From positions 1 through 56,738 of IMG/VR virus record IMGVR_UViG_3300008952_000057: DNA of 56,738 bases. One strand, given 5' to 3'. Under the pieces are notes generated by a model. The model searched no databases. It was given only the letters and a program-made list of their open reading frames with translations, and had not been told where the DNA came from. Origin of the DNA: a virus (taxonomy: Duplodnaviria; Caudoviricetes). How positions within the stretch are numbered: the first letter of the stretch is position 1; the number at the start of each line of letters is the position of its first letter. Of the stretch, positions 20,050-51,636 are shown piece after piece. The translations under genes were made by a program, and so were the position numbers.

Positions 20050-20342
20050 TACTTACCTGCCAATTTTACTTTCTTCAAAGCATCCTGTAGTATAATGTAT
20101 ATATTGTTACAAGAATAGTGGTTTACACCCTGTTTTCTCGATTCCTTCTTTATCTCTTCTATTGTATCATCAATAGTACTAAAGTTAGGATTATAAACAT
20201 TGGTTATTGTTTTTGGTTCAACTTTATCCTCTACAACTACACGTTTATTTTTTTTAATTGAATCTACTACTTCATCTGCAATTGATTCTAATCTAATTTT
20301 ACCAGCAGTGTCTACAGTATCTTTCTTAATTTTCTTTGCCAT
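20049..20342 (-). CDS. Hypothetical protein
   Basis: 97-aa ORF overlapping the portal end and coupled to the next gene. Confidence 0.6.
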   Translation of the reverse strand: MAKKIKKDTVDTAGKIRLESIADEVVDSIKKNKRVVVEDKVEPKTITNVYNPNFSTIDDTIEEIKKESRKQGVNHYSCNNIYIILQDALKKVKLAGK

Positions 20343-22227
20343 CTTCCCACCTCCTTACTTGCTCAAACTCCTGTTTAACTAAATCTCTTGCCTCTCTTAC
20401 AGTCATACCAGCCTTTCTTAACTTGTCAACGGTTTTTGTTTTCTTCCATCCAAAGTCAACTGCGTGTTGTAATGTTTTCTTTACTACTTCAAAGTTGGCT
20501 GGTGTAATTCCATCAGGATAACTCTTTTTACTCATACTTGTGCCTTTACCACTTGATGGTGAACCTTGTGCAATTCCACCAATGTCTGATGGTCTTCTAT
20601 TCTTTGGTTCTCCTTGCATAGATTGTCTTTCCTCTACTGGTGCTGCAGTTCCTCTTCCTCTACCTGTTTTAGCCATAACATCACCCAATAACATATCTTT
20701 CAATGGTAATACAGGGTCTTTACTAACTTTAAAGTCTCCTGTGTGTGTTCTTGATACTTCAAAGCCCATTCCTTGTAATGCCATCATATTTTCAATCTCC
20801 GTACCTTCAATTTGTAACTGCATTAACTCATCTGTCTCTTCTCCTTGTTTAAGTTTAATATCCCAATCCTCAACACCCAATATTTCAGATAATTTTCTAA
20901 AGAATGACTTTAGTAAAATATCTTGACCCCATTTCACTGCTCTATTTGTAATTGTAACTTGTAAACCTTCTTGTGACCAACCAGAAGGCATTTCACCATA
21001 ATAGAGTGGTAATACACCGTAAATAGCTCCTATAATCTGTCTTAACTCTTGCCTTACTGCTATAAACTCTAATTCTTTTAATGAACCAGTAAAGTCTAAC
21101 CACTGTGCAAGATTTTTACCACCTTTCTCCTGTTCTACAAGTAATGGGTGTATCATGTATGGGTCTTCGGTTGCTTTTTGTTCTAAAGCATCCCATGACT
21201 TTCTAAACGTTTCATAATTACGTGATGCAATAACTAACATACCTCTTGGTGGTCTCATCTTATCAAAGTATTTTCTAACATATTCATCCATGTGTGATAA
21301 GGACATTGCCTTTGACCAAATTGAATAAATTGGTGAGTAACCGTAAATTAGAGCTGGTTTATACTTTCCAGCCTTCCAGACAACCTCTCCGTCACCATAA
21401 ATAACTCTTTTTGGTTGTGGAATACCTAGAGAGTATACAGAGTTAACTTCAAGAACTGCTTTAATAGCTTCAGCTCCACATCTATCACATAATGGTTCTT
21501 GTAATCTTCTATCTCGATGTTCAAAACGTGGGCATACCCAAATTTTATTTCTTTTATCATCAAAACCAATTCTACCATCACTGTCAGCTATCATTGCTAC
21601 TTGTGGTGGGTCTATACGAATAACTTCCTTAATCTCAGTCTTATCATGATCAATTTTACCTGTACTATCGTCAATATAGTAATTTTTCAATAAAAGCATA
21701 TATGCATTATCAGCTATCTCTAAATCTCTCTCTAATTGTCTAGAAACGTCTTCTATGGTTTGGTTGTTACCGTTAATCGGTTTATCGATTAATTTTTGTA
21801 GTACCTTTCGGTTGTGTGGGTCTGGTCTTACAAGTTTGTTACTTCCACACGTATCACACTGCATTAATTGTTTTTTTCCTTCCTCTTTCGCAAGTATCTC
21901 TTCGGCATGACTGTCGTCTGGGGTATCTGTTGATAACGGTTTGTATTCAAACTCTTTTCCACAATCACCACATCTGTATTTAAAACGTTCAACAACTTCA
22001 AATCCATTTTTGAACATTTCTCTGTTAAGTGTTTCTACAGGTATTCTAATGGCATCAATATTATCTGCTAATTCATAAATCATAATTAATGGGAATGGAA
22101 ATATAGGTAACTTAGCACCAGTATCGGTACTCATGTAAGGTTGTGCTATACTAGGTCTTGATGTGGTATTTGTATAACTTTTATTAGTGTTTCTAAATAC
22201 ACTCTTAAATTTATCTATAAATCCCAT
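20326..22227 (-). CDS. Portal protein with zinc-ribbon insertions
   Basis: RDLEIADNAY, IDPPQV, YGYSPI, YF...PRGML and IGAIYGVLP portal motifs. First gene of the head block. Confidence 0.85.
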   Translation of the reverse strand: MGFIDKFKSVFRNTNKSYTNTTSRPSIAQPYMSTDTGAKLPIFPFPLIMIYELADNIDAIRIPVETLNREMFKNGFEVVERFKYRCGDCGKEFEYKPLSTDTPDDSHAEEILAKEEGKKQLMQCDTCGSNKLVRPDPHNRKVLQKLIDKPINGNNQTIEDVSRQLERDLEIADNAYMLLLKNYYIDDSTGKIDHDKTEIKEVIRIDPPQVAMIADSDGRIGFDDKRNKIWVCPRFEHRDRRLQEPLCDRCGAEAIKAVLEVNSVYSLGIPQPKRVIYGDGEVVWKAGKYKPALIYGYSPIYSIWSKAMSLSHMDEYVRKYFDKMRPPRGMLVIASRNYETFRKSWDALEQKATEDPYMIHPLLVEQEKGGKNLAQWLDFTGSLKELEFIAVRQELRQIIGAIYGVLPLYYGEMPSGWSQEGLQVTITNRAVKWGQDILLKSFFRKLSEILGVEDWDIKLKQGEETDELMQLQIEGTEIENMMALQGMGFEVSRTHTGDFKVSKDPVLPLKDMLLGDVMAKTGRGRGTAAPVEERQSMQGEPKNRRPSDIGGIAQGSPSSGKGTSMSKKSYPDGITPANFEVVKKTLQHAVDFGWKKTKTVDKLRKAGMTVREARDLVKQEFEQVRRWEDGKEN

Positions 22228-22271
22228 ATAAACGTGTTATTACTCTCACTTATAAACTTTGTCAGATTTTG

Positions 22272-22445
22272 TCAGTTTTTGTATTGTTTTTCACCATGAA
22301 CTTTACAAAATGGGTTTCTCGAACCATTCATTCTTGCACAGTCACAACTAGACGACTTTGTGTGGGTATGTTCCTTATCTCCACCTACATGAGAATGTTT
22401 GGTACCATCTTCGTGTTTATGTTCAACTTTTTCATCTTTAGCCAT
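22272..22445 (-). CDS. 57-aa His/Cys-rich metal-binding micro-protein
   Basis: MAKDEKVEHKHEDGTKHSHVGGDKEHTH...CDC...CKVH. TATA box 23 nt upstream of ATG 22445. Confidence 0.7.
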   Translation of the reverse strand: MAKDEKVEHKHEDGTKHSHVGGDKEHTHTKSSSCDCARMNGSRNPFCKVHGEKQYKN

Positions 22446-22480
22446 AATAAATAAATTACCTTTACTTATATAAAGATTAA

Positions 22481-22543
22481 CCCTAGTAGTGTGAGTTTGC
22501 ATACCTGTAGTAAAGGAGGACTGGTTTAACGAGCCAGCTAGGG
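22481..22543 (+). ncRNA. Candidate tRNA-like small structured RNA
   Basis: CCCTAG/CTAGGG closing stem, TA linker, GTGT/ATAC arm and CTGGT-TTAACGA-GCCAG arm. G-U pairs favour the + strand. Confidence 0.4.
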
Positions 22544-22576
22544 CAACTTTATAACCGTTCTATTTAGTATAAAAAT

Positions 22577-22753
22577 ATGGTAGAGTTAGAACCAGAAGAC
22601 TTTAGTGCGTTACTACGTTGGTTTGAAAAAGCATGGGGTAATAAACGACCAGAGGAAATCCCACTTACAGATAGACGTACCTTTTGGAAACTCACGTTCC
22701 TGTGCGAAGACCGTCTTCATGAACTTCGTGACGAAATCGATAAAGACGAATAG
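22577..22753 (+). CDS. 58-aa hypothetical protein
   Basis: MVELEPEDFSALLRWFEKAWG..., with TTTATA at 22548-22553 upstream and a hairpin terminator downstream. Confidence 0.7.
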   Translation: MVELEPEDFSALLRWFEKAWGNKRPEEIPLTDRRTFWKLTFLCEDRLHELRDEIDKDE

Positions 22754-22778
22754 TCGTGCCGAAGGCACGAGTTTTTTT
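22754..22778 (+). terminator. Hairpin plus oligo-T terminator
   Basis: TCGTGCC-GAA-GGCACGA followed by GTTTTTTT. Confidence 0.75.
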
Positions 22779-22819
22779 GGTTGAGGTAGATTTATAAACG
22801 TTGACTTCGTAAACGTTTC

Positions 22820-22945
22820 GTGGAAAAAGTTGTCGGAACCAAATGGAAATACAAATGTTACAAATGTAGCCTGATGTTTGAATCATCATCAGATGCCAAA
22901 ATGCATACGTTTATATCTGGACATCACCCAACCAAGTTAGGATGA
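22820..22945 (+). CDS. 41-aa C2H2 zinc-finger micro-protein
   Basis: GTG start. YKCYKCSLMFESSSDAKMHTFISGH. TTTATAAA at 22791. Confidence 0.65.
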   Translation: MEKVVGTKWKYKCYKCSLMFESSSDAKMHTFISGHHPTKLG

Positions 22946-23130
22946 AATCAGGATTATTATTACTTGGATTAATATTCATGGCAACAGGGTTTTTATTGCC
23001 TGTAGGAATTGCTCTAATTCTAATATGGCTATACACAGATGTCAAGAAAGACTATCTTGTAACCAAAGATGAAAAGGAATATAAGGAGCAAACACATATG
23101 AATTATGAGGAGATGCAGAAATGGAGATAA
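22942..23130 (+). CDS. Small membrane protein
   Basis: Hydrophobic N-terminal 30 aa, ATGA-coupled. Confidence 0.6.
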   Translation: MKSGLLLLGLIFMATGFLLPVGIALILIWLYTDVKKDYLVTKDEKEYKEQTHMNYEEMQKWR

Positions 23131-23249
23131 AATGCGTAACATGTTGGAGAACCTTTGAAAAGGCTGACATTTGTAAATATAATGGAAAGAATACCTGTAC
23201 CAAGTGTGCAGCCAAATTCTTAAAGTATGCGTTTGGGAGGGAGAAATGA
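23121..23249 (+). CDS. 42-aa zinc-finger micro-protein
   Basis: MEIKCVTC...CTKC, overlapping both neighbours. Confidence 0.6.
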   Translation: MEIKCVTCWRTFEKADICKYNGKNTCTKCAAKFLKYAFGREK

Positions 23250-23476
23250 AACTGTGTGAGATGTGCGACAGTCAAGTTCATGTGAGATTATTACAACTTA
23301 TGAAAAATGGTCAACTATTACATGTGTGTGAGTCATGCATACCAAGTATGTTTAACACAGGTTTTAGGCTTTTGGACTATCCCAATGGTAATATAATACC
23401 ATGGTCTATGGAAGAGAATTGGGATTGGGTTGTTAAGGTTAAAGAAGGAAGGAGACATGGCAGCAGATCCAATTAG
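23246..23476 (+). CDS. Zinc-finger protein
   Basis: MKLCEMCD...HVCESC. ATGA overlap with GGGAG upstream. Confidence 0.6.
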   Translation: MKLCEMCDSQVHVRLLQLMKNGQLLHVCESCIPSMFNTGFRLLDYPNGNIIPWSMEENWDWVVKVKEGRRHGSRSN

Positions 23477-23618
23477 TGACCTTCTCAATCTTCTAAAGGA
23501 GAAGTGGCTTCCTGATGAACAGAAGAAGATGATAGAATCTATGATTATACAGTTAATAGAGGAGATGCACGATAATATGGTAAAAGGTGAAAAGAGGGGA
23601 GACTTACCGTGGCGATAA
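23457..23618 (+). CDS. Hypothetical protein
   Basis: MAADPISDLL..., with GGAG SD upstream. Confidence 0.55.
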   Translation: MAADPISDLLNLLKEKWLPDEQKKMIESMIIQLIEEMHDNMVKGEKRGDLPWR

Positions 23619-23788
23619 CCAATAAGGACGTGGAGAATATTATGTGTGTTGCCTGTAATGAGTTAATCAAGGATCACTCTAAGAGAGGGTTAGGTAGGTG
23701 TCTGTTCCGTATTCAAGGTACTATGGTTTCAAATGGTCTCTCCCCTTACAAAGCCCATACTGAAGATAGGATTGAGGATCAGAAATGA
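23609..23788 (+). CDS. 59-aa zinc-binding micro-protein
   Basis: GTG start. CVAC...H...C. Confidence 0.55.
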   Translation: MAITNKDVENIMCVACNELIKDHSKRGLGRCLFRIQGTMVSNGLSPYKAHTEDRIEDQK

Positions 23789-23928
23789 CGAAACGAAAAG
23801 ATGGTACTAAGAAGTATGGTAATACTGGTATATCATACCGTGTGTTGAGTGAGGCTAGTGGTTGTTCCGAATATAAGATAATGGCTTATGTAAGGTTATT
23901 AGAACCTATAGTGGATGATTTGAAATGA
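23785..23928 (+). CDS. 47-aa hypothetical protein
   Basis: MTKRKDGTKKYG..., ATGA-coupled on both sides. Confidence 0.5.
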   Translation: MTKRKDGTKKYGNTGISYRVLSEASGCSEYKIMAYVRLLEPIVDDLK

Positions 23929-24062
23929 CGTGTTATGCCAATAAACGGTTAAAGTCCAAAAGAGACTTTGAGATGTATCAGATGTTTGGATGTCCTTACT
24001 GTGAGAATAATTTATATTGTCCTCCACCTGATAATATAAAAGATGAAAAAGATAAATGCTAA
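23925..24062 (+). CDS. 45-aa Cys-rich micro-protein
   Basis: MTCYAN...GCPYC...YCPPP, ATGA-coupled. Confidence 0.5.
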   Translation: MTCYANKRLKSKRDFEMYQMFGCPYCENNLYCPPPDNIKDEKDKC

Positions 24063-24201
24063 TGAGATTAAAGAATTTAAAAAACGTATTCATCAATTAC
24101 AAAGTTTAATACCTCACTTTACTATATCTGGAAATTTTAAGGTTGAGATAAAGACCTTACAGAAACAAGTTGAGAAACTATCAAAATGGATGAATTTCTA
24201 A
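24043..24201 (+). CDS. 52-aa hypothetical protein
   Basis: MKKINANEIKEF..., last gene of the + cluster. Confidence 0.45.
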   Translation: MKKINANEIKEFKKRIHQLQSLIPHFTISGNFKVEIKTLQKQVEKLSKWMNF

Positions 24202-24369
24202 TTTATACCTTGCCACCGATTTGTATGTATATAAATGTTTAAAAATAGGATTTTCTCTCTACGCACCAGCGGAGTACCGTAAAGTACCGTACTTTCGTGG
24301 AATTGTTTTAAAATTTGAAAAAAATAAAAAAAAGAGAAGATTGTTTGAGTTTCGTAAATCGACGACGAT

Positions 24370-24741
24370 TTATTCAGCTACAAACATCGTACCGATACGT
24401 GAACATTGCCAGTCGTCTTTAGTTGCTTTTCGTAAGAATGCGACTAATTGCTCTCGGTCTATCACGTCGGTCTCTGGGTGTTTTGAATTGAGTTGTTTTC
24501 TCTCAATGATACCTTCGTCTCTCATGAATTCCACGATGGACTCAAGATTCTTGGCATCGACTTTAATCGATTTACCTTTCGATTTTGTGGTCGATGTCTG
24601 AAGGTTCAAAACTTCACCTTTCAAGTTATTCAAATCTGCGATAATGTTTGAATCGTGTGATTCTACATCGCTTGATAGATTCTCTAACTTTTTGGCGATT
24701 GTCTTAACATCTGTCATTAATCGATTATCGATCTTCATCAT
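24370..24741 (-). CDS. Hypothetical coiled-coil protein next to the CG-rich island
   Basis: 123-aa ORF with noticeably CG-containing codons and a T-rich terminator downstream. Confidence 0.6.
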   Translation of the reverse strand: MMKIDNRLMTDVKTIAKKLENLSSDVESHDSNIIADLNNLKGEVLNLQTSTTKSKGKSIKVDAKNLESIVEFMRDEGIIERKQLNSKHPETDVIDREQLVAFLRKATKDDWQCSRIGTMFVAE

Positions 24742-24809
24742 ATATATATCATGGTATTGTCTGATTTGTCATGACTGGCACGACAGATTGGACATTGTGT
24801 TATATCCCT

Positions 24810-25325
24810 ATATCGACTCGTCGTCGTGTATTAATGGTGAATCTGTACACGTCGATCGTCGTAAAAAAAATAATTTTTTGTACACGTCGATCGATCGTCG
24901 AACGAATAAAAAAATAAAAAATAAACGTCGATCGTAGAACGATCGTAGTCGATCGATAGTACGACGATACCCTATATAAACGTTCGTCTATCGTTCGATA
25001 GAACGTCGTGTGGCACCTACACCATTCGATCGTCGTCGATATCGTTCGATACTACTCGATAGTCGTTCGATAGACTACTACGTATACTGTTCGTTATGCT
25101 ATTACTATTACTATACGATTCGTATATTGATGGTATAAGGAACTAATACTATACACGTCGACCGTAGTTGTATCTACGATAAATCGATAGACTTATATTA
25201 CGCCTACGTCGTCACGTATTTCGATAGTATACTACGAATCAAAACACTCGAATCTATGCCAATTACTCTAACGAATAACTACTACTACTACTATTACTAT
25301 GTCTATTACTATTATTATTATATGA
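24810..25325. repeat. CG/CGATCG-rich non-coding repeat island (candidate origin or genome-end region)
   Basis: Seven CGATCG sites, TGTACACGTCGATCG x2, TCGTTCGATA x3, A-tracts and an (ACT/ATT)n tract. Lies at the strand-divergence point. Confidence 0.75.
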
Positions 25326-25349
25326 TATGTATACCGTAACTAATAGGAG

Positions 25350-25367
25350 AACACCAACATTTATATT
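25350..25367 (+). promoter_or_regulatory. Early-type BRE/TATA promoter, copy 1
   Basis: AACACCAACATTTATATT, 21 nt before ATG 25389. Confidence 0.75.
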
Positions 25368-25388
25368 ACCACCTCACATAGACCCACC

Positions 25389-25703
25389 ATGGCAAAAACC
25401 AAGAATCCGAAATGGTCTTACAGAGTTAGTACTATAGCTAGAGGGATGTTTGAGGTACTTCTAGACGGTACTAAGAGTGGTAAATGTACTATTAGTATAG
25501 TCATGCCACAAAGAGACTGGTTCGTAAGAGTTAGAGGATTGACCACCTCTGATTATGCGATACTAAGGGCAACCAGACTCTTAAGATATGATAGAAACAC
25601 TAAAACGTTTACTATTAGTGACCCACTAGTGATAGGAAAGCTAGCTAGAATGGGTGTGAAACCAACACTAATACGTACTAATGTGCCTCAACTAGTTGAA
25701 TAA
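25389..25703 (+). CDS. Hypothetical basic protein (first gene of + block)
   Basis: 104-aa ORF behind the promoter. Confidence 0.7.
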   Translation: MAKTKNPKWSYRVSTIARGMFEVLLDGTKSGKCTISIVMPQRDWFVRVRGLTTSDYAILRATRLLRYDRNTKTFTISDPLVIGKLARMGVKPTLIRTNVPQLVE

Positions 25704-25718
25704 ACTAGGAGGAAACAC

Positions 25719-26405
25719 ATGAAAAACAAGAAACGTGTGAAGAGTGACTTTGTAGGAGAACCTACCTCAACCCTAGAGGATATACGTAAAGAGGTCTCTA
25801 GTTCTACGAAGTATAGACAAGTGAAGGAGGCACGAGAACTAGCTCGTAAGTTAATGGGAATCCCAGACTTACACAGCATAAAGTTTGTGACCAAGAATAA
25901 GACTCGACTACTACGTCTTTATAGACTAGAGAGTAGAGTACATAAGTTCTTAGAATCAGTGTTAGTATCTGATTACTCCCAGCAAATAGTCTATGCTCGT
26001 AAGGAAGAGTTGCTCAAAATCAACAAGGAGATACGAGCATTCAATGAGTATCGTGTACGAAACCCACTACTATCTATGGGTCTTCCTGAACTGGAAGAGA
26101 TAGACATGGAAAAGATTCAAGAGATAGACTTCTTGTATCTAGTAGACGAGAACAACAAATGGTCTCTTGCCTCATCTCTTAAGGAAGAGATTCAAGAGTT
26201 TAAATCCAGACTCGTAGAGAATTTGTCAATCTCTACACATAGTATAGGGTGTGGATTCGGTGACTGTACCAAAGGAGTAAAGAGAATCATTACTCGTGAG
26301 GATAAAGAGTACGATAAAATGCTCGAAGTAGATAAGACAAACCACTGGTATTGTAAGAGGTGCAAGTTTGGTTGGGTTAACTACGAGGAGGGTATCTCTT
26401 GTTAG
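25719..26405 (+). CDS. Hypothetical protein with C-terminal zinc ribbon
   Basis: GGAGG SD. C....C and WYCKRC motifs. Confidence 0.7.
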   Translation: MKNKKRVKSDFVGEPTSTLEDIRKEVSSSTKYRQVKEARELARKLMGIPDLHSIKFVTKNKTRLLRLYRLESRVHKFLESVLVSDYSQQIVYARKEELLKINKEIRAFNEYRVRNPLLSMGLPELEEIDMEKIQEIDFLYLVDENNKWSLASSLKEEIQEFKSRLVENLSISTHSIGCGFGDCTKGVKRIITREDKEYDKMLEVDKTNHWYCKRCKFGWVNYEEGISC

Positions 26406-26409
26406 AATT

Positions 26410-26439
26410 GGAGGGTGGAAACACCTTCCTTCCTTTTTT
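26410..26439 (+). terminator. GAAA-tetraloop hairpin plus oligo-T terminator
   Basis: GGAGGGTG-GAAA-CACCTTCC then TTCCTTTTTT. Confidence 0.75.
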
Positions 26440-26574
26440 GATTAACGTACTAATCCCTGTAGCTACAGTAGTAGGCAGAAAGGATGAATGCATACAATGT
26501 ATCACGTTCCTTAAAGGAGAATGGTGGTAGTCTATAGATTAGGTTAATATACTATAATATCTACACGATATACT

Positions 26575-26988
26575 ATGACAGAACAATTCAGAGGTGTCGA
26601 AGACATCGTAGAATCTGGAATGATATTTGCATACACAGATTTACTACGTGACTTGTGGCAAATGCAAGGTAACACTGATAAGGAAGAGTTCGACCAGTTC
26701 CTAAAGCATGTGTTAGTTAAGACGCACAAAGAAATCAATGTTAGTATTAAATATGTTAAGGAATTACTACACGTAATGGACATAGATAATGTAATGATGA
26801 TGAAGAAGAACATCTTAGGTATGGTAGCATTGAAGTACCCAGATTTTATCGAGAAACTCATAGACATTGAGGCAATGGATAAGATACTACCCAAACTATC
26901 ACCAGCGAAAGAGGCACAGATGAGGAGACTTGCTCAACAAATGACTGACGAGTTAGTAAGAAAGACACGATGGGAGGATGAAGAGTGA
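26575..26988 (+). CDS. Hypothetical protein
   Basis: 137-aa helical ORF. Confidence 0.65.
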   Translation: MTEQFRGVEDIVESGMIFAYTDLLRDLWQMQGNTDKEEFDQFLKHVLVKTHKEINVSIKYVKELLHVMDIDNVMMMKKNILGMVALKYPDFIEKLIDIEAMDKILPKLSPAKEAQMRRLAQQMTDELVRKTRWEDEE

Positions 26989-27131
26989 TGAACAAGTGTT
27001 ATAAATGTCACGAGACATACACAGAAAGACCAGCACAATCTAGAGAGGATGGTTCACCAATCTGTCCTCGTTGTGGAGAGTACGAAGCTTTCATGATATA
27101 CTGTAAGACCCACCACTACGACGGTAGTTAA
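26988..27131 (+). CDS. 47-aa zinc-finger micro-protein
   Basis: MNKCYKC...PAQSREDGSPICPRCG. Confidence 0.65.
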   Translation: MNKCYKCHETYTERPAQSREDGSPICPRCGEYEAFMIYCKTHHYDGS

Positions 27132-27133
27132 CA

Positions 27134-27430
27134 ATGCCCTGTTCATTCTGTGGTAGTAAGTTTAGATACCTTGGCACTACTACTGTTGTAGCTGAGTTAT
27201 CAACACCACTACGTATCAATATCTTTTATTGTGACAAATGCCAAAACATTATAGCTTTCGATGCTAATGTGAAGAAGAAACCTACAGTAAAGAAGGTAGA
27301 TAAGATGCCGAAATATGTAGAGCCAAAGCTTGTACTTACACCTGAAGAAGTAGAGATACGTAAGAAACATAAGATGACCGACAAACAACTCGAAGAATAC
27401 ATTAAAGAATGTAAGGTAGATAAGAGTTAG
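27134..27430 (+). CDS. Zinc-ribbon protein
   Basis: CSFCGS...FYCDKC. Confidence 0.65.
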   Translation: MPCSFCGSKFRYLGTTTVVAELSTPLRINIFYCDKCQNIIAFDANVKKKPTVKKVDKMPKYVEPKLVLTPEEVEIRKKHKMTDKQLEEYIKECKVDKS

Positions 27431-27446
27431 ATGTAATATCTAATAC

Positions 27447-27464
27447 AACACCAACATTTATATT
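27447..27464 (+). promoter_or_regulatory. Early-type BRE/TATA promoter, copy 2
   Basis: Identical 18-mer to 25350-25367, 23 nt before ATG 27488. Confidence 0.75.
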
Positions 27465-27568
27465 GGGCAACCTATATAATTCTGGGCATGGCAAAAACAA
27501 TTGCACATACAAATGATACGAGAGGAGTGGTGGCTTACTGAATAGTATAACCTAACTAATTATATTCG

Positions 27569-28693
27569 GTGAGTAAAATGAACCGAGAAGATATTAAAGA
27601 ACAACTAACTAACAAGGCACGAGACCTTGCACAAAACTCTGTTACTAAGAAGAATTACGTAGAGATTGTAAGAAACGATGAGTTCCTAGACTTACTAGAT
27701 AAACTTATGAAACAATCACCTAACGTAGTAAAGAAGGCAACCAAACCAACAATGGCAAAGTACCAACCTGTCGAAGAACTAACTACTAAGATACCTTTCG
27801 CTCCTATTGCGTTTGACCAATACGAACCTGTTAGATTAGGTGAGTACGTTGAGACCAAGAGTGAGTTGCAAGATATATTAGACATTGCACAGAACAAAGA
27901 GATACCTAACATTCTAATCGAGGCTGGAAAAGGTACAGGTAAAACAACTCTTGCTTATGAACTAGCTACTCTATTGAAAGAAACTTATGGTAAATGTAAT
28001 ATCATATCAATCTCATGTAGTAGTGGTTTAAGAGAGGGAGACCTACGAGGTAGATACCAACTAAGTGTTGATGAGAATGGTAAAGAGATATCAATCTTCG
28101 TTGCTGGTATTTTAATAGAGGCAATTCAATCTGCATTAAGAGATGGTGTTGCAGTACTATATCTAGATGAGTTGAATGCATTAGAACCAGAACTACAGAA
28201 GATGTTGAACTCATTACTTGATGCACGTAGATGTTTGTCAGCTAATGGTCATATGTTTAGAGTAGGAGATGCAAGACTAATTGTTGTGGCAACACAAAAC
28301 CCATCTACTTATTCAGGTGTCCAAGAATTGAACGAGGATTTGAGAAGTAGATTTGTTGGAGACATCTGGGATTACCCATCACAAGAACATCTAGAACAGA
28401 TTGTTGATTGGACTGGAGTACCAGACGATGCTAAACAAGGAATCACGCAACTAGCAACAGACACATACAACTATAGAACCAAGGGTGACGTAGAGTATGT
28501 CTTGACAGTGAGAGACCTCAAAGACTTCTGTGAAGTGTACCGTATATTTAATGACCCAAAACAAAATGCAGATGCATTAACTGTGTTGCGTAAGACATTA
28601 GATAAGACAGTACTAATCAGGTACAGTGATTCAACAGAACGTGAACTCATACAACAATCAATCAACGACACGTTTGATTGGTCAGAGAACTAG
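27569..28693 (+). CDS. MoxR/CbbQ/NirQ-type (CobS-like) AAA+ ATPase
   Basis: Walker A AGKGTGKT, Walker B LYLDELN, ATQNP..Y.G..ELN.DLRSRF. Confidence 0.9.
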   Translation: MSKMNREDIKEQLTNKARDLAQNSVTKKNYVEIVRNDEFLDLLDKLMKQSPNVVKKATKPTMAKYQPVEELTTKIPFAPIAFDQYEPVRLGEYVETKSELQDILDIAQNKEIPNILIEAGKGTGKTTLAYELATLLKETYGKCNIISISCSSGLREGDLRGRYQLSVDENGKEISIFVAGILIEAIQSALRDGVAVLYLDELNALEPELQKMLNSLLDARRCLSANGHMFRVGDARLIVVATQNPSTYSGVQELNEDLRSRFVGDIWDYPSQEHLEQIVDWTGVPDDAKQGITQLATDTYNYRTKGDVEYVLTVRDLKDFCEVYRIFNDPKQNADALTVLRKTLDKTVLIRYSDSTERELIQQSINDTFDWSEN

Positions 28694-28706
28694 GAGGTAC
28701 TAAGAA

Positions 28707-30932
28707 ATGAAATGGATATACAATATATCTAAAGGAGAATGGGAGGAGGCAACACCTAATCCCTTCTTCGTTCCTTTTTCTGAATACTTCACAGACAAAG
28801 ATTACTACGAGAAGAGAAAACATATTGTTGAGAAGATAACTGGTAAGAAGATAGCAATCACATATACTAGAGAACCAAATTCTATACATAACAATGGTCA
28901 AGGAGAGTTTGCAACTGAGAAGGCTAAGATTGAATACGTTATCAATCTAACTGACCCACCTCTTAAAGAAGTTGATATGAAATCAGCTTACTACCACGAG
29001 CAAGGACATGCATTGTGGGAGAGTTTTGTATCTAATGGTATGACAATCTGTAGAGACTATGGTAATAGTTACGTAGTAAAGAGATGGAAAGAGTTAGGTA
29101 TGTTAGCTGTCGTTGATGGTAAAGAACAGATAGTATTCAAGGACAAGAAAGGTAGAGAGATTTTGCCTGACCCAATACTATTCGAGAGGTTCAATAGATT
29201 ACTTGAATCACATAAAGGATTTGCACGTAGTACATACATGACAGTCTTTAATGTGTTAGAAGACCAGAGGATTGAATCATTAACTAGCAGAGTATGGTTG
29301 TCAACTAAGGGAATGTTTAAAGAGTTAAGGCAGAACCTTGCCTCTACTTGTCAAACATTTGAATCACCAGTTGATAAACTACTTGCAGTTAGATTCACTC
29401 ATCCATCAATGTTTGACGTAGAACATGTGTACCATGATGCAATAAAGAATGTAGAATACACAGATAAGTTTGGAGCAATCATTGAGGTTCACAAACTACG
29501 TAAAGACATTGACGAGTGGATTGAAAAACAACTGAAAGAAAACATGAAGAAAGTAATGGACAACTATAATGCAATAGCCAATGGTGGATTTGGAAAGAAC
29601 GAACAAGAGGAATTGCAAAAACTAAAACAAGAGATAAAACAAGCACCAGACAAAGCAGTCGTAGAGGTGGAGTCAAGGATTAATAAGTTCAAAGCAATAG
29701 AGAAACTTCAAGGTATGGACAAGAAACAAATGGAACAGGCAAAGAAACGTGAGCAACAACTAACTAGAAGTGTGAACAAGATGAAGAGAGAAATGTCTAC
29801 CACCAATAAAGAATGGGAGACCAAAAGAAAAAGAGTGGAAGAATTAGAGAGGAAAGAAACAGAACATGGAAGTGCAAGAGAAAGAATAAGATCAGAACTA
29901 AATGGTTCAGCTAACACTATGATTGAGAAAGGTAATAGTGAATTTGCTAAGAATCCAACTGGTAATCATGAGGCTTGTTCACATGAGAATAAAGCAGAAC
30001 TGGAAGAGGTAATGGAAAAACTAAAAGCTGGTGGACTAACTAATGAGAAGAGCAAGGCAACAGCACGTAGAGAGATAAGCAACATACTATCAAAACTACA
30101 AGAACTAGAAGAACCAGAGAAACCAGCACATATCCTAGTAGATAGTAATTACCAGAACAGAGAAGTGGGTGAGATAACCGACCTTAATGCAACAGCTACA
30201 AGATATCTAAAGAAAACATTCGACAAGATTGTTGCAAGTAGAGTTACAAAAGTAACAGAGAATGGCATGGAAGTAGATACTGAATCATACATAGCAAGAA
30301 AACAACGAGGTTATGGTGAGTTTATGATAGGTGAAGAACCTCAACGTGGTCTCAAAGTAATAGTATCTATAGATGGTTCAGGTTCTATGAGATATGATGA
30401 CCGTATAAATATCTGTAGAAGAATGATTGCAACAATGTTCAAATCAATAGAAGGATTACCACACGTACAATTGATAGCAAATGTATGGTCAGCAGGTAGA
30501 GATGGAGATGTATGTATAACACCTATCAGAAAACTATCCGAGTGTAGACATATTGGTATAGACAGTCACTACGTATACACACCAACACATGAAGCACTAA
30601 GATATGCAAGACAAGAGATAACAAACAGTGGTAATGGTAAGAAACTATTCATCATGTTAACTGATGGACATCCACAATACTTTGACCCTGTTAGTAGGGC
30701 TGCAATAGATGATAAAATCCTAGTGAGAATGGCAAGAAAAGAGTTTACCAAACTGAATAGATTATGCAAGAACTCATTTGCATTAGGTATATCAACTTCT
30801 GGTCTAGGACGAAGACAATTGACAGAAGTATTCAAGAAGAACATAGTATATGTCAAAAACGCACAACAAGCTGAAGGTATAGTGTTGAAGAAATTCAGAC
30901 AACAAGTAATAGATACAATGAAGAGAAGATAG
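28707..30932 (+). CDS. vWA-domain protein with N-terminal HEXXH domain (CobT/NorD-like AAA+ partner)
   Basis: HEQGH and FNVLEDQRIE at the N-terminus, a central coiled coil, then MIDAS DGSGS...T...TDG. Confidence 0.85.
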   Translation: MKWIYNISKGEWEEATPNPFFVPFSEYFTDKDYYEKRKHIVEKITGKKIAITYTREPNSIHNNGQGEFATEKAKIEYVINLTDPPLKEVDMKSAYYHEQGHALWESFVSNGMTICRDYGNSYVVKRWKELGMLAVVDGKEQIVFKDKKGREILPDPILFERFNRLLESHKGFARSTYMTVFNVLEDQRIESLTSRVWLSTKGMFKELRQNLASTCQTFESPVDKLLAVRFTHPSMFDVEHVYHDAIKNVEYTDKFGAIIEVHKLRKDIDEWIEKQLKENMKKVMDNYNAIANGGFGKNEQEELQKLKQEIKQAPDKAVVEVESRINKFKAIEKLQGMDKKQMEQAKKREQQLTRSVNKMKREMSTTNKEWETKRKRVEELERKETEHGSARERIRSELNGSANTMIEKGNSEFAKNPTGNHEACSHENKAELEEVMEKLKAGGLTNEKSKATARREISNILSKLQELEEPEKPAHILVDSNYQNREVGEITDLNATATRYLKKTFDKIVASRVTKVTENGMEVDTESYIARKQRGYGEFMIGEEPQRGLKVIVSIDGSGSMRYDDRINICRRMIATMFKSIEGLPHVQLIANVWSAGRDGDVCITPIRKLSECRHIGIDSHYVYTPTHEALRYARQEITNSGNGKKLFIMLTDGHPQYFDPVSRAAIDDKILVRMARKEFTKLNRLCKNSFALGISTSGLGRRQLTEVFKKNIVYVKNAQQAEGIVLKKFRQQVIDTMKRR

Positions 30933-32972: not shown

Positions 32973-33185
32973 ATGAATTTACAAGAAAGATATAATGAAA
33001 TGAAGAGAGAACAACACACAATATGTAATGCAGTTGGATGTAATAAATTAGTAGAGCATAAATTAAAATGTCTTATAACTTACCCTAATAAAAAAGAGGG
33101 TATACATACTGTATATTTATGCCATTCATGTTTTCTAAACCAGAAGCTAATTGATTATAAAAAAGAGGAGGTAGATAAACAATGA
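32973..33185 (+). CDS. Zinc-finger micro-protein
   Basis: CNAVGC...LCHSC. Confidence 0.6.
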   Translation: MNLQERYNEMKREQHTICNAVGCNKLVEHKLKCLITYPNKKEGIHTVYLCHSCFLNQKLIDYKKEEVDKQ

Positions 33186-33817
33186 CCAAATGGAGAAACC
33201 AGTTTGGTGCTGGTGACACTAACGACCCACAAAAAAGTGTATGGGGAAAGAAACTATTAGGTGGTGTAGCTGGTCTAAAATTCACAGCAAAACAAATAGT
33301 AGATGAGTTTCCTAGAGGATGGACAACATACGTAGAACCTTTCGCTGGAATGGCAAGAACCTGTAAGGAAATGGGTTTTGATATGTGTACCTTTTCTACT
33401 AATACTATTGTGTTGAATGATTTGTCACCACACTCTAACGAGTACTGTAAGAAGGTATTTCCTATTGCAATAGTAGAGAATATGTCATTTGAAGATACAA
33501 TTAACAAATATGATAGTGATAAGACATTCTTCTTTATTGACCCACCTTGGAGACATAATATATACACATACAATGACTTCTTTAGGATGGATAGAAAGGT
33601 ATATGATTACTACGAGAAGTTGTTAGAGATGACCGAGACAATGAAGGGTGATTGGATGATTACTTCCAATGCTGATGAGCATGAGTGTAGAAAAATACTG
33701 ACCAAAAGTAAATGGAATACAAAATTGATTAGTAGTGGTGGTAAACACATATTTGGTAAACCAGCCAAAACACTATTGTGCAGTAATATATTTGGATTGA
33801 AGGAGAAATCGAAATGA
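33182..33817 (+). CDS. DNA adenine methyltransferase (D12/Dam-like class)
   Basis: YVEPFAG (SAM-binding motif I), VLNDL, FFFIDPPW (catalytic motif IV). Confidence 0.85.
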   Translation: MTKWRNQFGAGDTNDPQKSVWGKKLLGGVAGLKFTAKQIVDEFPRGWTTYVEPFAGMARTCKEMGFDMCTFSTNTIVLNDLSPHSNEYCKKVFPIAIVENMSFEDTINKYDSDKTFFFIDPPWRHNIYTYNDFFRMDRKVYDYYEKLLEMTETMKGDWMITSNADEHECRKILTKSKWNTKLISSGGKHIFGKPAKTLLCSNIFGLKEKSK

Positions 33818-39519: not shown

Positions 39520-41511
39520 CTATCCTTTAGTTTTTGTGTACCAATTTCCATCGACTTTTTTGATAATACAATTCTGTTCCCATCTAGCAAATATTTTTCT
39601 TGCATCTTCTTCAGACATGTTATCTTCCATCTCCATAAGTTTGTAAAAATGTGATTCTTTAACTCGTCCATTCTCATTTTCTAATGATTTCCATACCCTA
39701 TAAGCTTTCTGTTCTTTAGATTCTGACTTGGTAGCACCTGTAAGTTTACTTTGATCAAATTTCTTTGAGGTATCTAAATTAATATCAAAATTAGCATACA
39801 TTTCTTTTATAATATTCTCAACTGCTAGCACATCTTCAATTAATACTTCATCTCTAAAAAACATCTTTGCGTGGGCTGTGCTTAATCTAACTATTGCCTC
39901 TAACTGTCTAGTTCCTATAGCAATTGAATCACTATTCTTTGACATTCCTCTCATTGTTTCATACATATGTAAAATTTTATTCTTTGTGACATCAATCATC
40001 TTTGGATTTAATTTTCTAATATGATTTATGTAAGCAGTGAGTTGTTCTTTAGTCATATAACAGGAGGTGGTTTTGTCTGGGTTAATATATGATGTGAGTA
40101 TATGTTCTGCTTTCTTATTATCAGTGAACTGTTCTATCTCATCCTTGATTAACCATATCAAATCAAATCTTGACAGTAATGGGGTTGGCATATTTATGTT
40201 GGTTGCTAAAGATTCATCAGGATCATACTTACCAAACTTTGGATTGGCTGCTGCGAGTATTGTGGTTTTTGCCTCAAGTGTTATCCTAAACCCTGCCTTT
40301 GCTATACTACATTGTTGTTGTTCCATCACTTCGTTAAGTCCTGATTGATCTTGTTCTTTCATATGCCCTGCCTCATCTATAAAACAAAATCCTTTATTAC
40401 ATTGTGGACAGGCTCCAGCTTTGGCATATAATTTACCGTTATCTTCTTTGACTATACCTATTGTTAATCCTACAGTAGAACTACCTTTACCTGATACATA
40501 CATTGAACGTGGTGTAACCTTCTCTGCAAATTTAAGTATCTCTGACTTTGCAACTGATGGATCTCCAACAAGAAGTATGTGACTATCCCCTCTTCTTAAA
40601 CTGTTTCCACCTTTTGCCAATTGTAAAATGATTGACTCTTTAATAATATTCATACCGTATATGTGTGGAGCAAAACTACTAACTAAATCCTTTTTGAATT
40701 GTTCTGCATCTTTACTATCCTCTTTAAACTTTTTCAAATCATCTTCAGATAATTCTAATTCTTTTGACTCATCTAAATCTTCAGATGCGATAACATCTAT
40801 GATTAAATTATGTATGTTTTCTTTAAGGTCAAAGACCGAACGATAAATACCTGTGATTCTTTTTCGCTGACCTATAAATATCTCACGAATCATATCACCT
40901 GTAACAACACCTTCTAATGTGACTGGAGAACTGTGAAGTGAAGTGTCCATTGGTTCTCCTAATAATACCGTCATGATATTTTCAGTTTTAACTGTCTCCC
41001 TATCTACTTCTAATTTATGTCTCTTACAAGATGAATTAGTACAAATCATAATAGGAATTTTCTTATCAATATCACATTTAGAATCAAAATCATTACCACA
41101 TAAAGGACAACGTAAAGTACAGGTTTTTATATAAGATTTTGGTGACTCGGATGCTATTACTTCACAATCAAATGTAACCATGGCACCCTCATGATCTGTT
41201 GCATTTAGATCATGCATTAATAATATATGTTCATCTGTTAACTTAACCTGAAGTTTTCTAAACGTGTGTTTTACATCAAATTTTGCACCATATTTCTCCT
41301 CTAAAATAATAAGAATACATTGTTTAACATTATCAATAAATTCTCTTGTTTCTTTAAAGTCACAATAAATATCAATGAAGGGTTTTTTAGCTATGTTAAC
41401 TGATAAACTACCGTTAGGTCTTAGACTATCAATCATATTAGTCCACATTGGTTTACGAAATTCTTCTAATAATCTATCACGTAAAGCAGACTGTGTATAC
41501 ATATGACTCAT
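39520..41511 (-). CDS. mcm: MCM replicative helicase
   Basis: Zn finger CPLC...C....C, GDPSVAKS, IDE, MEQQ, AAANPKFG, LLSRFD and TRQLEAIVRL. Confidence 0.95.
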   Translation of the reverse strand: MSHMYTQSALRDRLLEEFRKPMWTNMIDSLRPNGSLSVNIAKKPFIDIYCDFKETREFIDNVKQCILIILEEKYGAKFDVKHTFRKLQVKLTDEHILLMHDLNATDHEGAMVTFDCEVIASESPKSYIKTCTLRCPLCGNDFDSKCDIDKKIPIMICTNSSCKRHKLEVDRETVKTENIMTVLLGEPMDTSLHSSPVTLEGVVTGDMIREIFIGQRKRITGIYRSVFDLKENIHNLIIDVIASEDLDESKELELSEDDLKKFKEDSKDAEQFKKDLVSSFAPHIYGMNIIKESIILQLAKGGNSLRRGDSHILLVGDPSVAKSEILKFAEKVTPRSMYVSGKGSSTVGLTIGIVKEDNGKLYAKAGACPQCNKGFCFIDEAGHMKEQDQSGLNEVMEQQQCSIAKAGFRITLEAKTTILAAANPKFGKYDPDESLATNINMPTPLLSRFDLIWLIKDEIEQFTDNKKAEHILTSYINPDKTTSCYMTKEQLTAYINHIRKLNPKMIDVTKNKILHMYETMRGMSKNSDSIAIGTRQLEAIVRLSTAHAKMFFRDEVLIEDVLAVENIIKEMYANFDINLDTSKKFDQSKLTGATKSESKEQKAYRVWKSLENENGRVKESHFYKLMEMEDNMSEEDARKIFARWEQNCIIKKVDGNWYTKTKG

Positions 41512-44969: not shown

Positions 44970-45126
44970 AAAGAAACAAGATAAAAAACCAGAGTTAACT
45001 TTCGATGAGTTACTAAAAAAGTATAAGGAATTAGTTGCACTTCATAACAAAGTTCTAGACATGGTAGAAAAATCTTCTTTGGAAATAGTTTTATTCTGTA
45101 AAAAGAATCAAATCAATCTCCAATAA
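44962..45126 (+). CDS. 54-aa hypothetical protein
   Basis: MSKKKQDKKPELTFDELL... Confidence 0.55.
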   Translation: MSKKKQDKKPELTFDELLKKYKELVALHNKVLDMVEKSSLEIVLFCKKNQINLQ

Positions 45127-50913: not shown

Positions 50914-51011
50914 TAATATTTCCACCTATCATGGCAATGACATTTACAATCTCCTTCTTTTTCATCATTACAACAATCACACCACACACAACATTTCTCT
51001 CTTTTCACCAT
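50913..51011 (-). CDS. 32-aa metallothionein-like micro-protein
   Basis: MVKREKCCVWCDCCNDEKEGDCKCHCHDRWKY, TAATG-coupled on both sides. Confidence 0.65.
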   Translation of the reverse strand: MVKREKCCVWCDCCNDEKEGDCKCHCHDRWKY

Positions 51012-51127
51012 TAGGCTGTCCTCGTATGTTTTGTTTTAATATGATTAACAACTTCTTGAGAGTTTTTAAATCCTTTCTTACCACACCAAATACAATGTCT
51101 TATTTGAATCTCGTCTTTATATATCAA
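51011..51127 (-). CDS. 38-aa C2H2 zinc-finger micro-protein
   Basis: TTG start. CIWCGKKGFKNSQEVVNHIKTKH. Confidence 0.65.
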   Translation of the reverse strand: MIYKDEIQIRHCIWCGKKGFKNSQEVVNHIKTKHTRTA

Positions 51128-51636
51128 TCTGACTTTCTCGCTTTTATTTGTTTGAAGATACTTTCTATGTCACCCTGTTTATTTAGTTTAGTTTCTTCGG
51201 TTAATACTATCTTGCTATTCAATTCATTGATTGATTTAACTATATTTAGTAGGGTGTTTATCTCAGATTTGGTGTTTCTATCAGGTATATTACCATCCAT
51301 CTTAGACTCTGTTAACGCCATCAATACATTCTCAAAGGATAATTTTGCTATCATATCTAACATGGCTTTAACATCATCAGGTTTTCTAGTATCTAAGTCA
51401 TTGATGAATTTAACAAAATCTTCTCTTATAGCACAAATAGCTCCAGCTTCGTATTTTGGACATTTACCATTTCCACCGTCATCTATTGACCTATAAATAC
51501 ATTGGTCACATAATGCTGGTAAGTTAGCAGTTTTCATATGCTTTGCAGAGTTGAATGGTGATATTGTTTTTCTTCCATCGATAACAACTTTACCTCCTCC
51601 TCCTATAGGCTTTATTTTAAATAGGTCTTCTGCCAT
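51124..51636 (-). CDS. Cys-containing helical protein, candidate terminase small subunit
   Basis: First gene of the terminase operon (TATA 23 nt upstream). CDQC...C...C followed by long helices. Confidence 0.45.
   Translation of the reverse strand: MAEDLFKIKPIGGGGKVVIDGRKTISPFNSAKHMKTANLPALCDQCIYRSIDDGGNGKCPKYEAGAICAIREDFVKFINDLDTRKPDDVKAMLDMIAKLSFENVLMALTESKMDGNIPDRNTKSEINTLLNIVKSINELNSKIVLTEETKLNKQGDIESIFKQIKARKSD

Follow-up and report, generated by a model that had tools for sequence, protein, structure and literature searches.

A lineage-switched palindrome island as a candidate early-control region and replication origin in tailed viruses assigned to marine ammonia-oxidising archaea

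Why should a virus whose genome is poor in CG carry, at the point where two genes diverge, a non-coding stretch packed with that dinucleotide? We examined this question in the window, a 56,738-base stretch of DNA comprising the whole of IMG/VR virus record IMGVR_UViG_3300008952_000057 (hereafter virus W), which is classed as linear and about 91% complete. The island in question is the entire intergenic region 24742–25388 (647 bases), from which the genes o123 and o104 read away leftward and rightward, a divergence that a first-pass annotation of the window had noted (Table 1). Comparison with relatives revealed that the island keeps its place and a small core, while the palindromes that fill it are exchanged as a set. 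A motif confined to one locus, its palindromic nature, its set-wise replacement among close relatives and the fast-evolving predicted dimer encoded beside it argue that the island is probably a single-copy docking or loading array for a lineage-specific dimeric DNA-binding protein. We favour, at a probability of about 0.4, the more specific reading that it is a cis-acting early-control region combined with a replication origin.

CG is scarce across the genome of W (769 occurrences; observed/expected ratio, o/e, 0.45), and eight loci of the presumed host genus are CG-depleted too (o/e 0.37–0.73). Against this background the first-pass annotation had singled out 24810–25325 as packed with CG, and the stretch indeed holds 55 (o/e 3.29); the richest 500-base windows of the genome, starting at 24751 and 24801, contain 55 CG against a mean of 6.75 (standard deviation 5.9, median 5). 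The full intergenic region comprised 57 CG (o/e 2.69), 18 TCGA (8.4-fold; 2.1 expected), 7 GATC (3.3-fold) and 9 ACGT (4.2-fold), with a TA o/e of 1.44 and no CTAG, and outside the island TCGA falls to 56 against 176 expected. GC and GG are rare in it, as claimed, at four each (o/e 0.24 and 0.29).

The words that fill the island are nearly private to it. All seven CGATCG copies of W lie there (24853, 24888, 24892, 24929, 24940, 24950 and 25027), with none outside 24202–25388, where 5.2 would be expected from base composition; the same holds for both copies of the 15-mer TGTACACGTCGATCG (24844 and 24879) and all three of TCGTTCGATA (24991, 25042 and 25063), and six of the seven TCGATAG copies fall within the island. 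The 12-mer TATCGTTCGATA likewise occurs twice, and these longer words recur at non-tandem spacings. The island has the highest repeated-6-mer score in W, the sole comparable window (2301) lying inside an open reading frame (ORF; 957–3545) that matches tail-fibre families, and the repeats at its locus include a six-copy family (D1) and a 3-copy family (D4). The (ACT/ATT)n tract was also confirmed, at about 25273–25320.

Two parts of the earlier description needed revision. The "phased A-tracts" exist as A/T blocks, but there are only two (24863–24879 and 24905–24925), alternating with three CGTCGATCG boxes at spacings of 35 and 41 bases, and the phasing was overstated. The core of the island stood as drawn but its left limit did not: CG enrichment runs on through the o123 gene (o/e 1.54, 21 CG) and 24202–24369 (o/e 2.33) to about 24200, with six TCGA in o123 against 1.2 expected and ATCGAT/TCGA sites continuing into its 5' end. 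In none of eight islands did a periodogram of CG positions over 3–25 bases show a period that exceeded the 95% level of shuffled sequence. The 10–11-base spacing seen in W occurs in local runs only, such as the TCGA sites at 25026, 25036, 25046, 25056 and 25067 in the TATCG-TT-CGATA region; CG-to-CG distances in W peak at 3, 4, 7 and 11 bases, and those of one relative (L084) keep a 3-base period out to 44 bases. An Rfam scan gave no match within the island, and blastn of 24000–26500 against 50,697 phage records returned no match; a bacterial promoter and terminator scan is uninformative for an archaeal virus.

The portal gene of W (20326–22227, − strand) has 364 relatives in IMG/VR, and the best 80 of the 364 loci were taken for comparison. 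Extension of the set by o104, o228 and CobS-like queries (loci per query: o104 single sequence 0, o104 alignment 2, CobS-like 1, o228 alignment 6) led to eleven islands of five motif types. Among the loci named here, L047 equals G001 (60 kb), L018 equals L086 and G006, and G002 is 100% complete. L002, whose portal is 80% identical, is the closest relative with sufficient flank; it showed the same order of o123-like gene, 728-base island and o104 homologue, and its island is saturated with CTAG, TAGCTA and ACTAGT (29 CTAG against 2.4 expected; CG o/e 0.35). The motif types are CGATCG/TCGATAG in W; CGTCG/GTCGAC/ACGT in L084; CTAG/ACTAGT/TAGCTA in L002, L082 and L089 (island CG o/e 0.35–0.65); ACGCGT/CGCGCG together with two (TATTA)n tracts of roughly 80–100 bases in L047/G001 and L026; and (TATA/TACATA)n with GGCTGG boxes in L018/L086/G006, L010, L013 and L038. 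The filler motifs were self-complementary in every island examined. Six of the seven ACGCGT sites of G001 lie within its own island, like the seven of seven CGATCG in W, and the island is the sole non-coding repeat hub in the W, G001 and G006 genomes. Its length ranges from about 550 to about 840 bases among complete islands; the contigs of at least three relatives (L010, L013 and L038) end inside the island or just beyond. The first-pass annotation had proposed a search for a compositionally similar island at the syntenic position: equivalents are there, with the exceptions of G002 and G007:C10, but they do not share the composition. Since other motifs fill them, CG richness, GATC and TCGA appear to be the local motif of one lineage and not a conserved property. 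The idea that the CG enrichment marks foreign DNA was rejected because the syntenic islands of relatives are CG-poor.

What the islands do share is their position, 2.5–4.5 kb upstream of the portal gene and immediately ahead of o104-like/o228-like early genes, and a compact core. GTACAC was present in at least two copies in 10 of the 11 islands and in one copy in the eleventh (0.07–0.17 expected per strand), always on the strand reading towards o104/o228, and the pair is 32–35 bases apart in W, L018, L010 and L013. The island pair is the only close same-strand GTACAC pair on that strand of the W genome, one other pair lying on the opposite strand inside a coding region; in G001 and G006 it is the only such pair on either strand. 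A/T-only tracts follow directly downstream of GTACAC, at 17 and 21 bases in W and, as read off the sequence, at roughly 80–100 bases after each box, twice each, in L047 and L026; L018/L086 have long (TA)n-rich runs instead, broken by few G/C. TA o/e was 1.44–1.80 in the five islands computed. An internal AGGTATATATAG box is found in L002, L082, L018, L010, L038 and L070, with shorter variants in L084 and L089, and a TAC/TAT tract lies near the right-hand promoter, on the same side as in W, in L002, L082, L084 and L089.

The left-hand gene, o123, is monocistronic and converges on small + strand ORFs. Its protein had 8 matches at E ≤0.001 among 1.84 billion cluster representatives, 6 of them small full-length homologues. 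An AlphaFold2 (AF2) model (mean predicted local distance difference test score, pLDDT, 74.8) placed a 44-residue helix at 6–49 and an alpha/beta domain at 63–123, joined across the low-confidence residues 50–57 by what appears to be a basic disordered linker. A symmetric homodimer was predicted via residues 65–122 (ipSAE 0.48 against 0.00 for the best control), with runs agreeing in at least 75% of contacts and a partner pLDDT of at least 70; 20 of 30 solved homo-pairs attain this ipSAE, as does 1 of 23 single chains, a calibration that is rough because a custom alignment was used. Being symmetric, such a dimer would fit palindromic sites. The homologues fall into three subfamilies (W, P0005 and P0007; L084 and P0006; L002, L082, L089, P0003, P0004 and P0008), and subfamily coincides with island motif for the five members with known islands. 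Identity was 41% between two CTAG-type viruses and 20–25% between CTAG-type and CGTCG-type, whereas o104 is equally identical (65–66%) among L002, L082 and L084.

In the scheme that we infer, the island would combine three kinds of element: common ones (the GTACAC pair, meltable A/T tracts and TATA-like boxes), lineage-specific palindrome arrays whose motif is nearly absent elsewhere in the genome (CGATCG, CGTCGATCG and TATCG-TT-CGATA in W), and the adjacent o123 gene. A dimeric lineage-specific protein, possibly o123, would bind the palindrome arrays cooperatively, some sites lying 10–11 bases apart, and its binding would set the activity of the diverging early promoters. The bound protein, together with a GTACAC-recognising factor, may then open the neighbouring A/T tract and so let the viral MCM helicase (39520–41511) load. 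An origin is favoured because each island twice places an A/T-only tract after the conserved box, the classical layout of an unwinding element, because W encodes its own MCM with no Orc1/Cdc6 among the proteins scanned, and because site density and tract length go beyond the requirements of a transcriptional switch. Of the 31 W proteins scanned, none matched an Orc1/Cdc6 family at threshold, the only trace being an ORC-CDC6-like match below the cut-off (E 0.0074) in a CobS-like ATPase; o123, o104 and o228 had no Cdc6 or AAA+ family match, and no orc1/cdc6 gene is adjacent to the island. Given its own MCM and a RadA/Rad51 recombinase, a virus-specific origin recogniser is plausible. The presumed host oriC, upstream of cdc6 (L137:2880–3380; also L138–L140), has two to three copies of CACGCCTAGACTGGAAATAAAGGGGT and, in some 300 bases, about eight GTTAAC palindromes, with hardly any variation among the four genomes; this palindrome cluster beside initiator boxes may be read as a parallel only. 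The suggestion of an iteron-plus-unwinding origin in the first-pass annotation was thus supported by comparison as far as a repeat and A/T-tract cis element at the divergence point is concerned, with the origin itself as the leading reading.

Several results weigh against this reading. The complete genome G002, which is collinear with W, and the virus contig G007:C10 (checked 7 kb upstream of the portal gene) have no island even though they carry an MCM or portal gene, so the island is not universal in the group. The host-type origin recognition box (ORB) core, CTGGAAA.{2,8}GGGG, has no occurrence in W, nor has a looser form, and the GC-skew switch near 22–25 kb, a possible sign of an origin, follows gene orientation as the skew does throughout W and thus provides no independent origin signal. 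Single-stranded DNA of 24816–25080 showed no better folding than shuffled sequence (z −1.34), 19 of 200 shuffles scoring as well. The o123 protein belongs to no Pfam or PHROG family and no recognisable initiator or DNA-binding family; Foldseek gave no matches at E ≤0.001 (best E 0.22), and its C-terminal domain gave weak, mostly winged-helix-like matches (Foldseek E 0.2 or worse; VIA Z 2.6–3.4, from a second look at the domain, the wide VIA search having been dominated by the long helix). These included the ORC2 C-terminal domain, TubR, SSV1 F-93, MarR/ArsR, RTP and AspA, and the winged-helix likeness is a weak lead only. The co-variation of o123 with the motif, in five viruses, could be explained by genetic linkage alone. 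The left-hand gene of L070 and of the (TATA)n clade encodes a different small protein, that of L018 having no detectable homology to o123 (hhalign probability 0.2), and the L047 clade has no left-hand o123-like gene, which restricts the o123 part of the model to a single clade. Finally, three promoter-like boxes of the CGCCTTATATAGTTCA type stand in tandem in L070, each with a GATC palindrome next to it, an operator-like arrangement.

That last arrangement suits the main rival, a purely transcriptional early switch of the immunity type, which we regard as possible though somewhat unlikely. Here a lineage-specific repressor or activator, whether o123 or some other early protein, would use the palindromes as its operators, and these would overlap bidirectional promoters made of a B recognition element (BRE) and a TATA box; motif switching would give co-circulating viruses different regulatory specificities, as between heteroimmune lambdoid phages, with no role in replication. 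Promoter-like boxes do stand at both edges of the island, with two more inside (Table 1), TATA-like boxes and palindromes being interleaved, the internal AGGTATATATAG box is conserved across clades, ATCGAT/TCGA sites run into the 5' end of o123 as autoregulation would give, and o123 co-varies with the motif and is a predicted dimer. A density of about 25 TCGA-containing sites in 450 bases and, in relatives, A/T-only tracts of roughly 80–100 bases nevertheless far exceed what a switch needs, a promoter would have no evident use for the oriented GTACAC pair and the A/T tract after it, and the motif stands at no other promoter in the genome, which implies that there is no regulon. The combined origin and early-control reading and the switch are not mutually exclusive. 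An altogether different account, which we consider improbable, treats the island as a hypervariable neutral spacer produced by replication slippage or template switching, its filler drifting by concerted expansion of a chance-seeded 3–4-base unit and only the promoters and GTACAC boxes being functional. The CG distance peaks of W (3, 4, 7 and 11) and the 3-base period of L084 would agree with it, as would microsatellite-like (TCGA)n, (TAGC)n, (TATTA)n, (TATA)n and (ACT)n runs, the variation in length and contigs that end in or near the island (L010, L013 and L038), as variable low-complexity DNA would make them do. Drift of this kind does not readily account for self-complementary rather than arbitrary units in all islands, for longer defined words at non-tandem spacings, for the extension of the motif into the o123 coding sequence or for a motif type that tracks the o123 subfamily.

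Two further accounts start from GATC. A packaging-initiation site or physical terminus, another option of the first-pass annotation and here one resembling P1 pac, at which the packaging machinery would bind the palindromes and cut nearby, is suggested by the seven CGATCG within 175 bases together with a viral D12 methyltransferase. Genes lead away from this non-coding region to either side, an arrangement seen at many phage genome ends, and all six larger records examined are classed as linear. We nonetheless hold it to be very unlikely: the large terminase gene, TerL, and the small-subunit candidate, TerS, are about 24 kb away; the TerS candidate is 56–75% identical across viruses with differing island motifs and 70% identical in the island-less G002; the near-complete contigs of W, G001 and G006 assemble through the island; the circular permutations of W and G002 break in tail-fibre-like genes and not in the island; and the methyltransferase is absent from G001, G006 and G002, other island motifs having few or no GATC. 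The least credible account, fitting W alone, is a restriction-modification or methylation device, with sites recognised by host restriction systems or by the viral methyltransferase acting as a decoy or a methylation-sensing timer. Palindromes are strongly avoided genome-wide (GATC o/e 0.38 outside the island), the W island concentrates the otherwise avoided GATC, and W alone has the D12 methyltransferase. Yet even the island has no CCGG, CGCG, GGCC or GCGC, TCGA is depleted outside it roughly as CG depletion alone predicts, the genomes of relatives do not avoid the motifs that fill their islands (66 CTAG in L002 where 28 are expected; TCGA 39/42 and ACGT 64/42 in L084), and the (TATA)n islands have no restriction-type motif. 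The GATC-methylation switch or decoy of the first-pass annotation, and its zone kept for a methyltransferase or DpdA-like modification, accordingly lost ground, the CG/GATC chemistry not being general, relatives using other motifs and the D12 methyltransferase being specific to W.

Table 1. Features of the island and its flanking genes in virus W (window coordinates; function of promoter-like boxes as proposed).
Feature	Coordinates	Strand	Remark
o123, 123 aa	24370..24741	−	leftward from island; candidate lineage-specific island-binding protein
TATA-like box, CCCTATAT on + strand	24799..24815	−	putative o123 promoter
TGTACACGTCGATCG box 1	24844..24858	+	GTACAC at 24845–24850
A/T-only block 1 (A8 T AA T6, 17 bases)	24863..24879		
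TGTACACGTCGATCG box 2	24879..24893	+	GTACAC at 24880–24885; 35 bases past box 1
A/T-only block 2 (21 bases)	24905..24925		repeat family D5
CGATCG cluster	24926..24969		sites 24929, 24940, 24950, spacings 11 and 10; families D1, D4
Internal promoter-like box AACGTTTATATAG, leftward	24972..24984	−	three-mismatch match to W promoter word; putative function
TATCG-TT-CGATA near-palindromes	24989..25075		exact 12-mers at 24989, 25040; third TCGTTCGATA at 25063; families D12, I6
Internal promoter-like box TAGACTTATATTA, rightward	25188..25200	+	three-mismatch match to promoter word; putative function
(ACT/ATT)n tract	25273..25320	+	families D2, D3
AACATTTATATTA	25356..25368	+	putative BRE/TATA promoter of o104; ends 20 bases before ATG
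o104, 104 aa, conserved protein	25389..25703	+	rightward from island
o228, early protein with ARKLMG-PDL motif	25719..26405	+	

The putative promoters at the two edges have counterparts in relatives: a CCC(C)TATATA box similarly adjoins the left-hand gene in L084, L002 and L018, and ACATTTATA is kept before the o104 homologues of L002, L082 and L089, with CATTTATAA in L084. Exact AACATTTATATTA occurs in W here and at 45125 only, the latter before the ORF at 45158; when up to 3 mismatches are allowed, the 97 matches do not exceed chance expectation (89.8). The distance of the box from the o104 start codon (Table 1) suggests a leaderless or near-leaderless o104 mRNA. The o104 protein is 50–53% identical to its L002, L082 and L084 homologues and to P0002, and a word-indexed search gave 2 homologues; it had no family match, and its AF2 model (pLDDT 54.9) is too low in confidence for use of the fold. 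Homologues of o228 were found in L018, L084, L002, L047, L026, L070 and L082, and the gene tracks the island: G001 and G006, which have one, carry it, whereas it was not found in G002, which has no island. The o104 gene has 6 CTAG against 1.1 expected; CTAG is densest in W at 25401–25900, a span covering o104 and the start of o228 with 10 copies per 500 bases (mean 1.2), and is enriched 2–6-fold in the o104/o228 homologues of all five viruses checked, CG-type ones included. Left of o123, in the CG-enriched convergent gap, 24140–24218 (− strand) matched a C/D-box snoRNA family of Rfam at 25 bits, short of its gathering score of 47 (E 0.14), which is probably due to chance. Further left, at 22577–24201 (+ strand), a chain of ten short, mostly overlapping or abutting ORFs (41–62 aa), several with CxxC pairs, diverges from the portal operon and converges on o123; GC skew is positive there, and some members have homologues in relatives (o90p, 47–56% identical).

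Searches around the island set yielded a few additional observations. A shorter island variant at L070:6950–7550 has three AGGCACGAA repeats with GATCG and no GTACAC pair; L028, L032 and L035 have the same GATCGC/CGATCA words as L070, at contig ends. About 500 bases to the left of the L047 island, L047:6650–7160 contains no ORF of at least 60 aa and holds a GGTTCAAATCC word resembling a tRNA T-arm, where ARAGORN found no tRNA. An alignment of the W subfamily of o123 revealed no further W-type islands in viral or metagenome contigs. The pattern GTACACGTCGATCG returned at least 119 stretches, which were taken as chance because, among the 80 matches listed, each had one copy, and a double-box pattern gave none in metagenome contigs; these scans may leave out records of W's own genome.

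W is a tailed virus with an HK97-type major head protein, tail proteins, TerL (49531–50925) and a TerS candidate (51124–51636); the closest named relatives of its portal are those of the haloarchaeal viruses HVTV-1 and HCTV-1/5, at about 23% identity. It also encodes a CobS-like AAA_5 ATPase with a VWA protein, the ATPase lying 2.2 kb from the island, and no tRNA was found in W. A D12-class N6-adenine DNA methyltransferase at 33182–33817 (+ strand), matched to the C-terminal part of the Pfam model over residues 90–176 only, is the sole methyltransferase seen in W, the one lineage with a GATC-rich island; no homologue was found in the three near-complete relatives searched (G001, G006 and G002). 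Host assignment was based on an alignment of MCM from W and four viral homologues, which was scanned against one-genome-per-species contigs and gave 30 loci; a single-sequence scan of the same kind gave none. By name, 27 of the 30 belong to the Nitrososphaeria lineage, two to a "Thermoproteota archaeon" and one to a "bacterium". The top match was a 44-kb contig (G007:C10) in a Candidatus Nitrosopelagicus metagenome-assembled genome (MAG), the contig being itself a related virus (portal 74%, MCM 44% identical; also L096/L126/L128) that is either co-binned or integrated. The predominance of Nitrososphaeria among the MCM matches and the viral contig in a Nitrosopelagicus MAG indicate, as far as sequence goes, that W infects marine ammonia-oxidising archaea (marine Nitrososphaeria). 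Tailed viruses of these archaea are abundant and uncultured. Lopez-Perez et al. 2019 and Ahlgren et al. 2019 reportedly described marine thaumarchaeal virus groups from metagenomes, and W probably belongs to these.

The near-complete contigs W, G002, G006 and G001 are collinear, with a major capsid protein that is 89–94% identical among them, and their early region (24–37 kb) is mostly unshared. W and G002 are mutually circularly permuted: the genes at the ends of W (3–944 and 55968–56738) are contiguous in G002 and vice versa, the breaks falling in lectin-/tail-fibre-like genes. In two runs of a separate study, 0.97 and 0.91 of sampled words from 21000–29000 were present, which argues against a gross chimera across this stretch, the recovery being that of the 8 kb as a whole and not of the island itself. 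The virus-group material examined showed no sign of lysogeny, though no search was aimed at integrases.

W has no CCGG, CGCG or GGCC against about 49–50 expected each, and 4 GCGC against 50. None of the 14 viral sequences tabulated (W, L047, L066, L077, L051, L005, L078, L070, L026, L018, L086, L084, L002 and L128; about 250 kb, some overlap) contains CCGG or GGCC, both of which are near expectation in four 6-kb host-genus loci (L137–L140). CGCG and GCGC are near zero except in the L047/L026 clade, where they are normal, and GATC, AGCT, ACGT and GTAC are depleted in differing lineages. This loss of palindromes is a strong, lineage-specific footprint of restriction avoidance, and the lack of CCGG and GGCC a clear mark of host restriction systems. 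The island palindromes belong to the same class of short palindromes that the genomes police, yet the avoided words and the island words do not regularly coincide: L002 has an excess of CTAG, and L084 shows no depletion of TCGA or ACGT.

A more far-reaching proposal, which we regard as rather unlikely, is that the island and its neighbour gene form an exchangeable specificity cassette sorting co-circulating viruses into "compatibility groups", each with its own rare palindrome (CGATCG, CTAG, GTCGAC, ACGCGT or TATA) and a matching dimeric reader, the shared GTACAC and A/T core doing the origin firing or early-promoter activation. If so, open-ocean archaeal tailed viruses would gain their first described iteron- or immunity-like specificity system, with sites drawn from a palindrome class otherwise purged under restriction pressure. 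Were the pairing of motif and protein true, it would offer a molecular marker for compatibility or competition groups of ocean viruses and an example of binding specificity evolving via wholesale replacement of a repeated palindrome. The island already provides a concrete, alignable cis-element candidate with a common GTACAC and A/T core and a lineage-specific array, and its o123 partner is small, expressible and testable in vitro without a culture system. The literature searched, including parts of PMC8651126 and bioRxiv 10.1101/2025.08.23.671958, with supplements and the founding thaumarchaeal-virus papers outside the search, contained no description of such islands in archaeal tailed viruses. 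Within the same portion of the literature, no cis-acting element (origin, switch or packaging site) had been defined for tailed viruses of marine ammonia-oxidising archaea.

Among known systems, the seven GATC-containing hexamers within fewer than 200 bases (24853–25027), found in W only, and the D12-class methyltransferase are reminiscent of P1 pac, in which Dam methylation of seven GATC-containing hexamers controls cleavage; unlike pac, the W island is far from the terminase genes, and relatives have GATC-free islands and lack the methyltransferase. Partition centromere and operator arrays (R1 parC with ParR, the pSM19035 omega heptads, the pNOB8 AspA site) resemble the island in having short repeats, here partly 10–11 bases apart, upstream of a gene for a small predicted-dimer protein, and in specificity that differs between related replicons; AspA and TubR are among the weak, non-significant fold matches of o123. 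No partition NTPase gene is adjacent to the island, however, ParA, ParM and TubZ had no family match among the W proteins scanned, and we know of no need for partition in a tailed marine virus. Like an archaeal chromosomal origin, the island is non-coding, lies at a gene divergence and has A/T-rich tracts flanked by repeated boxes, and the cdc6-upstream region of the host genus has a dense GTTAAC cluster beside ORB-like repeats; in contrast, W has no ORB-like element or adjacent orc1/cdc6, and the island palindrome varies by lineage.

Two further parallels concern specificity. In lambdoid immunity regions the repressor, operators and cro form an exchangeable cassette with 3+3 operators within about 80 bases. 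The island is similar in that a small gene, o123, is transcribed away from an early gene across palindromes, and in that gene and sites co-vary between similar flanks; it differs in its dozens of sites over 550–840 bases, its long A/T-only tracts and its GTACAC boxes. Iteron origins of plasmids and lambda-type phages use 17–22-base direct iterons with a cognate initiator, and geminivirus iterons are matched by Rep specificity determinants. For the latter, the comparison was with the begomoviruses (PMC2974675). The island agrees with an iteron-type origin in being a single locus of clustered short repeats by an A/T-rich tract at a transcription divergence, with a repeat that differs among close relatives and changes with the adjacent small protein gene. 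Its repeats are, by contrast, mostly self-complementary 4–12-mers at very high density, o123 has no Rep- or initiator-like domain, and a GTACAC box is common across specificities. On comparison of these sequences the island would thus belong to a known kind, arrays of repeats bound by a cognate protein at an origin or switch, and what sets it apart is the wholesale switching of palindromes among close relatives around a common GTACAC-plus-A/T core.

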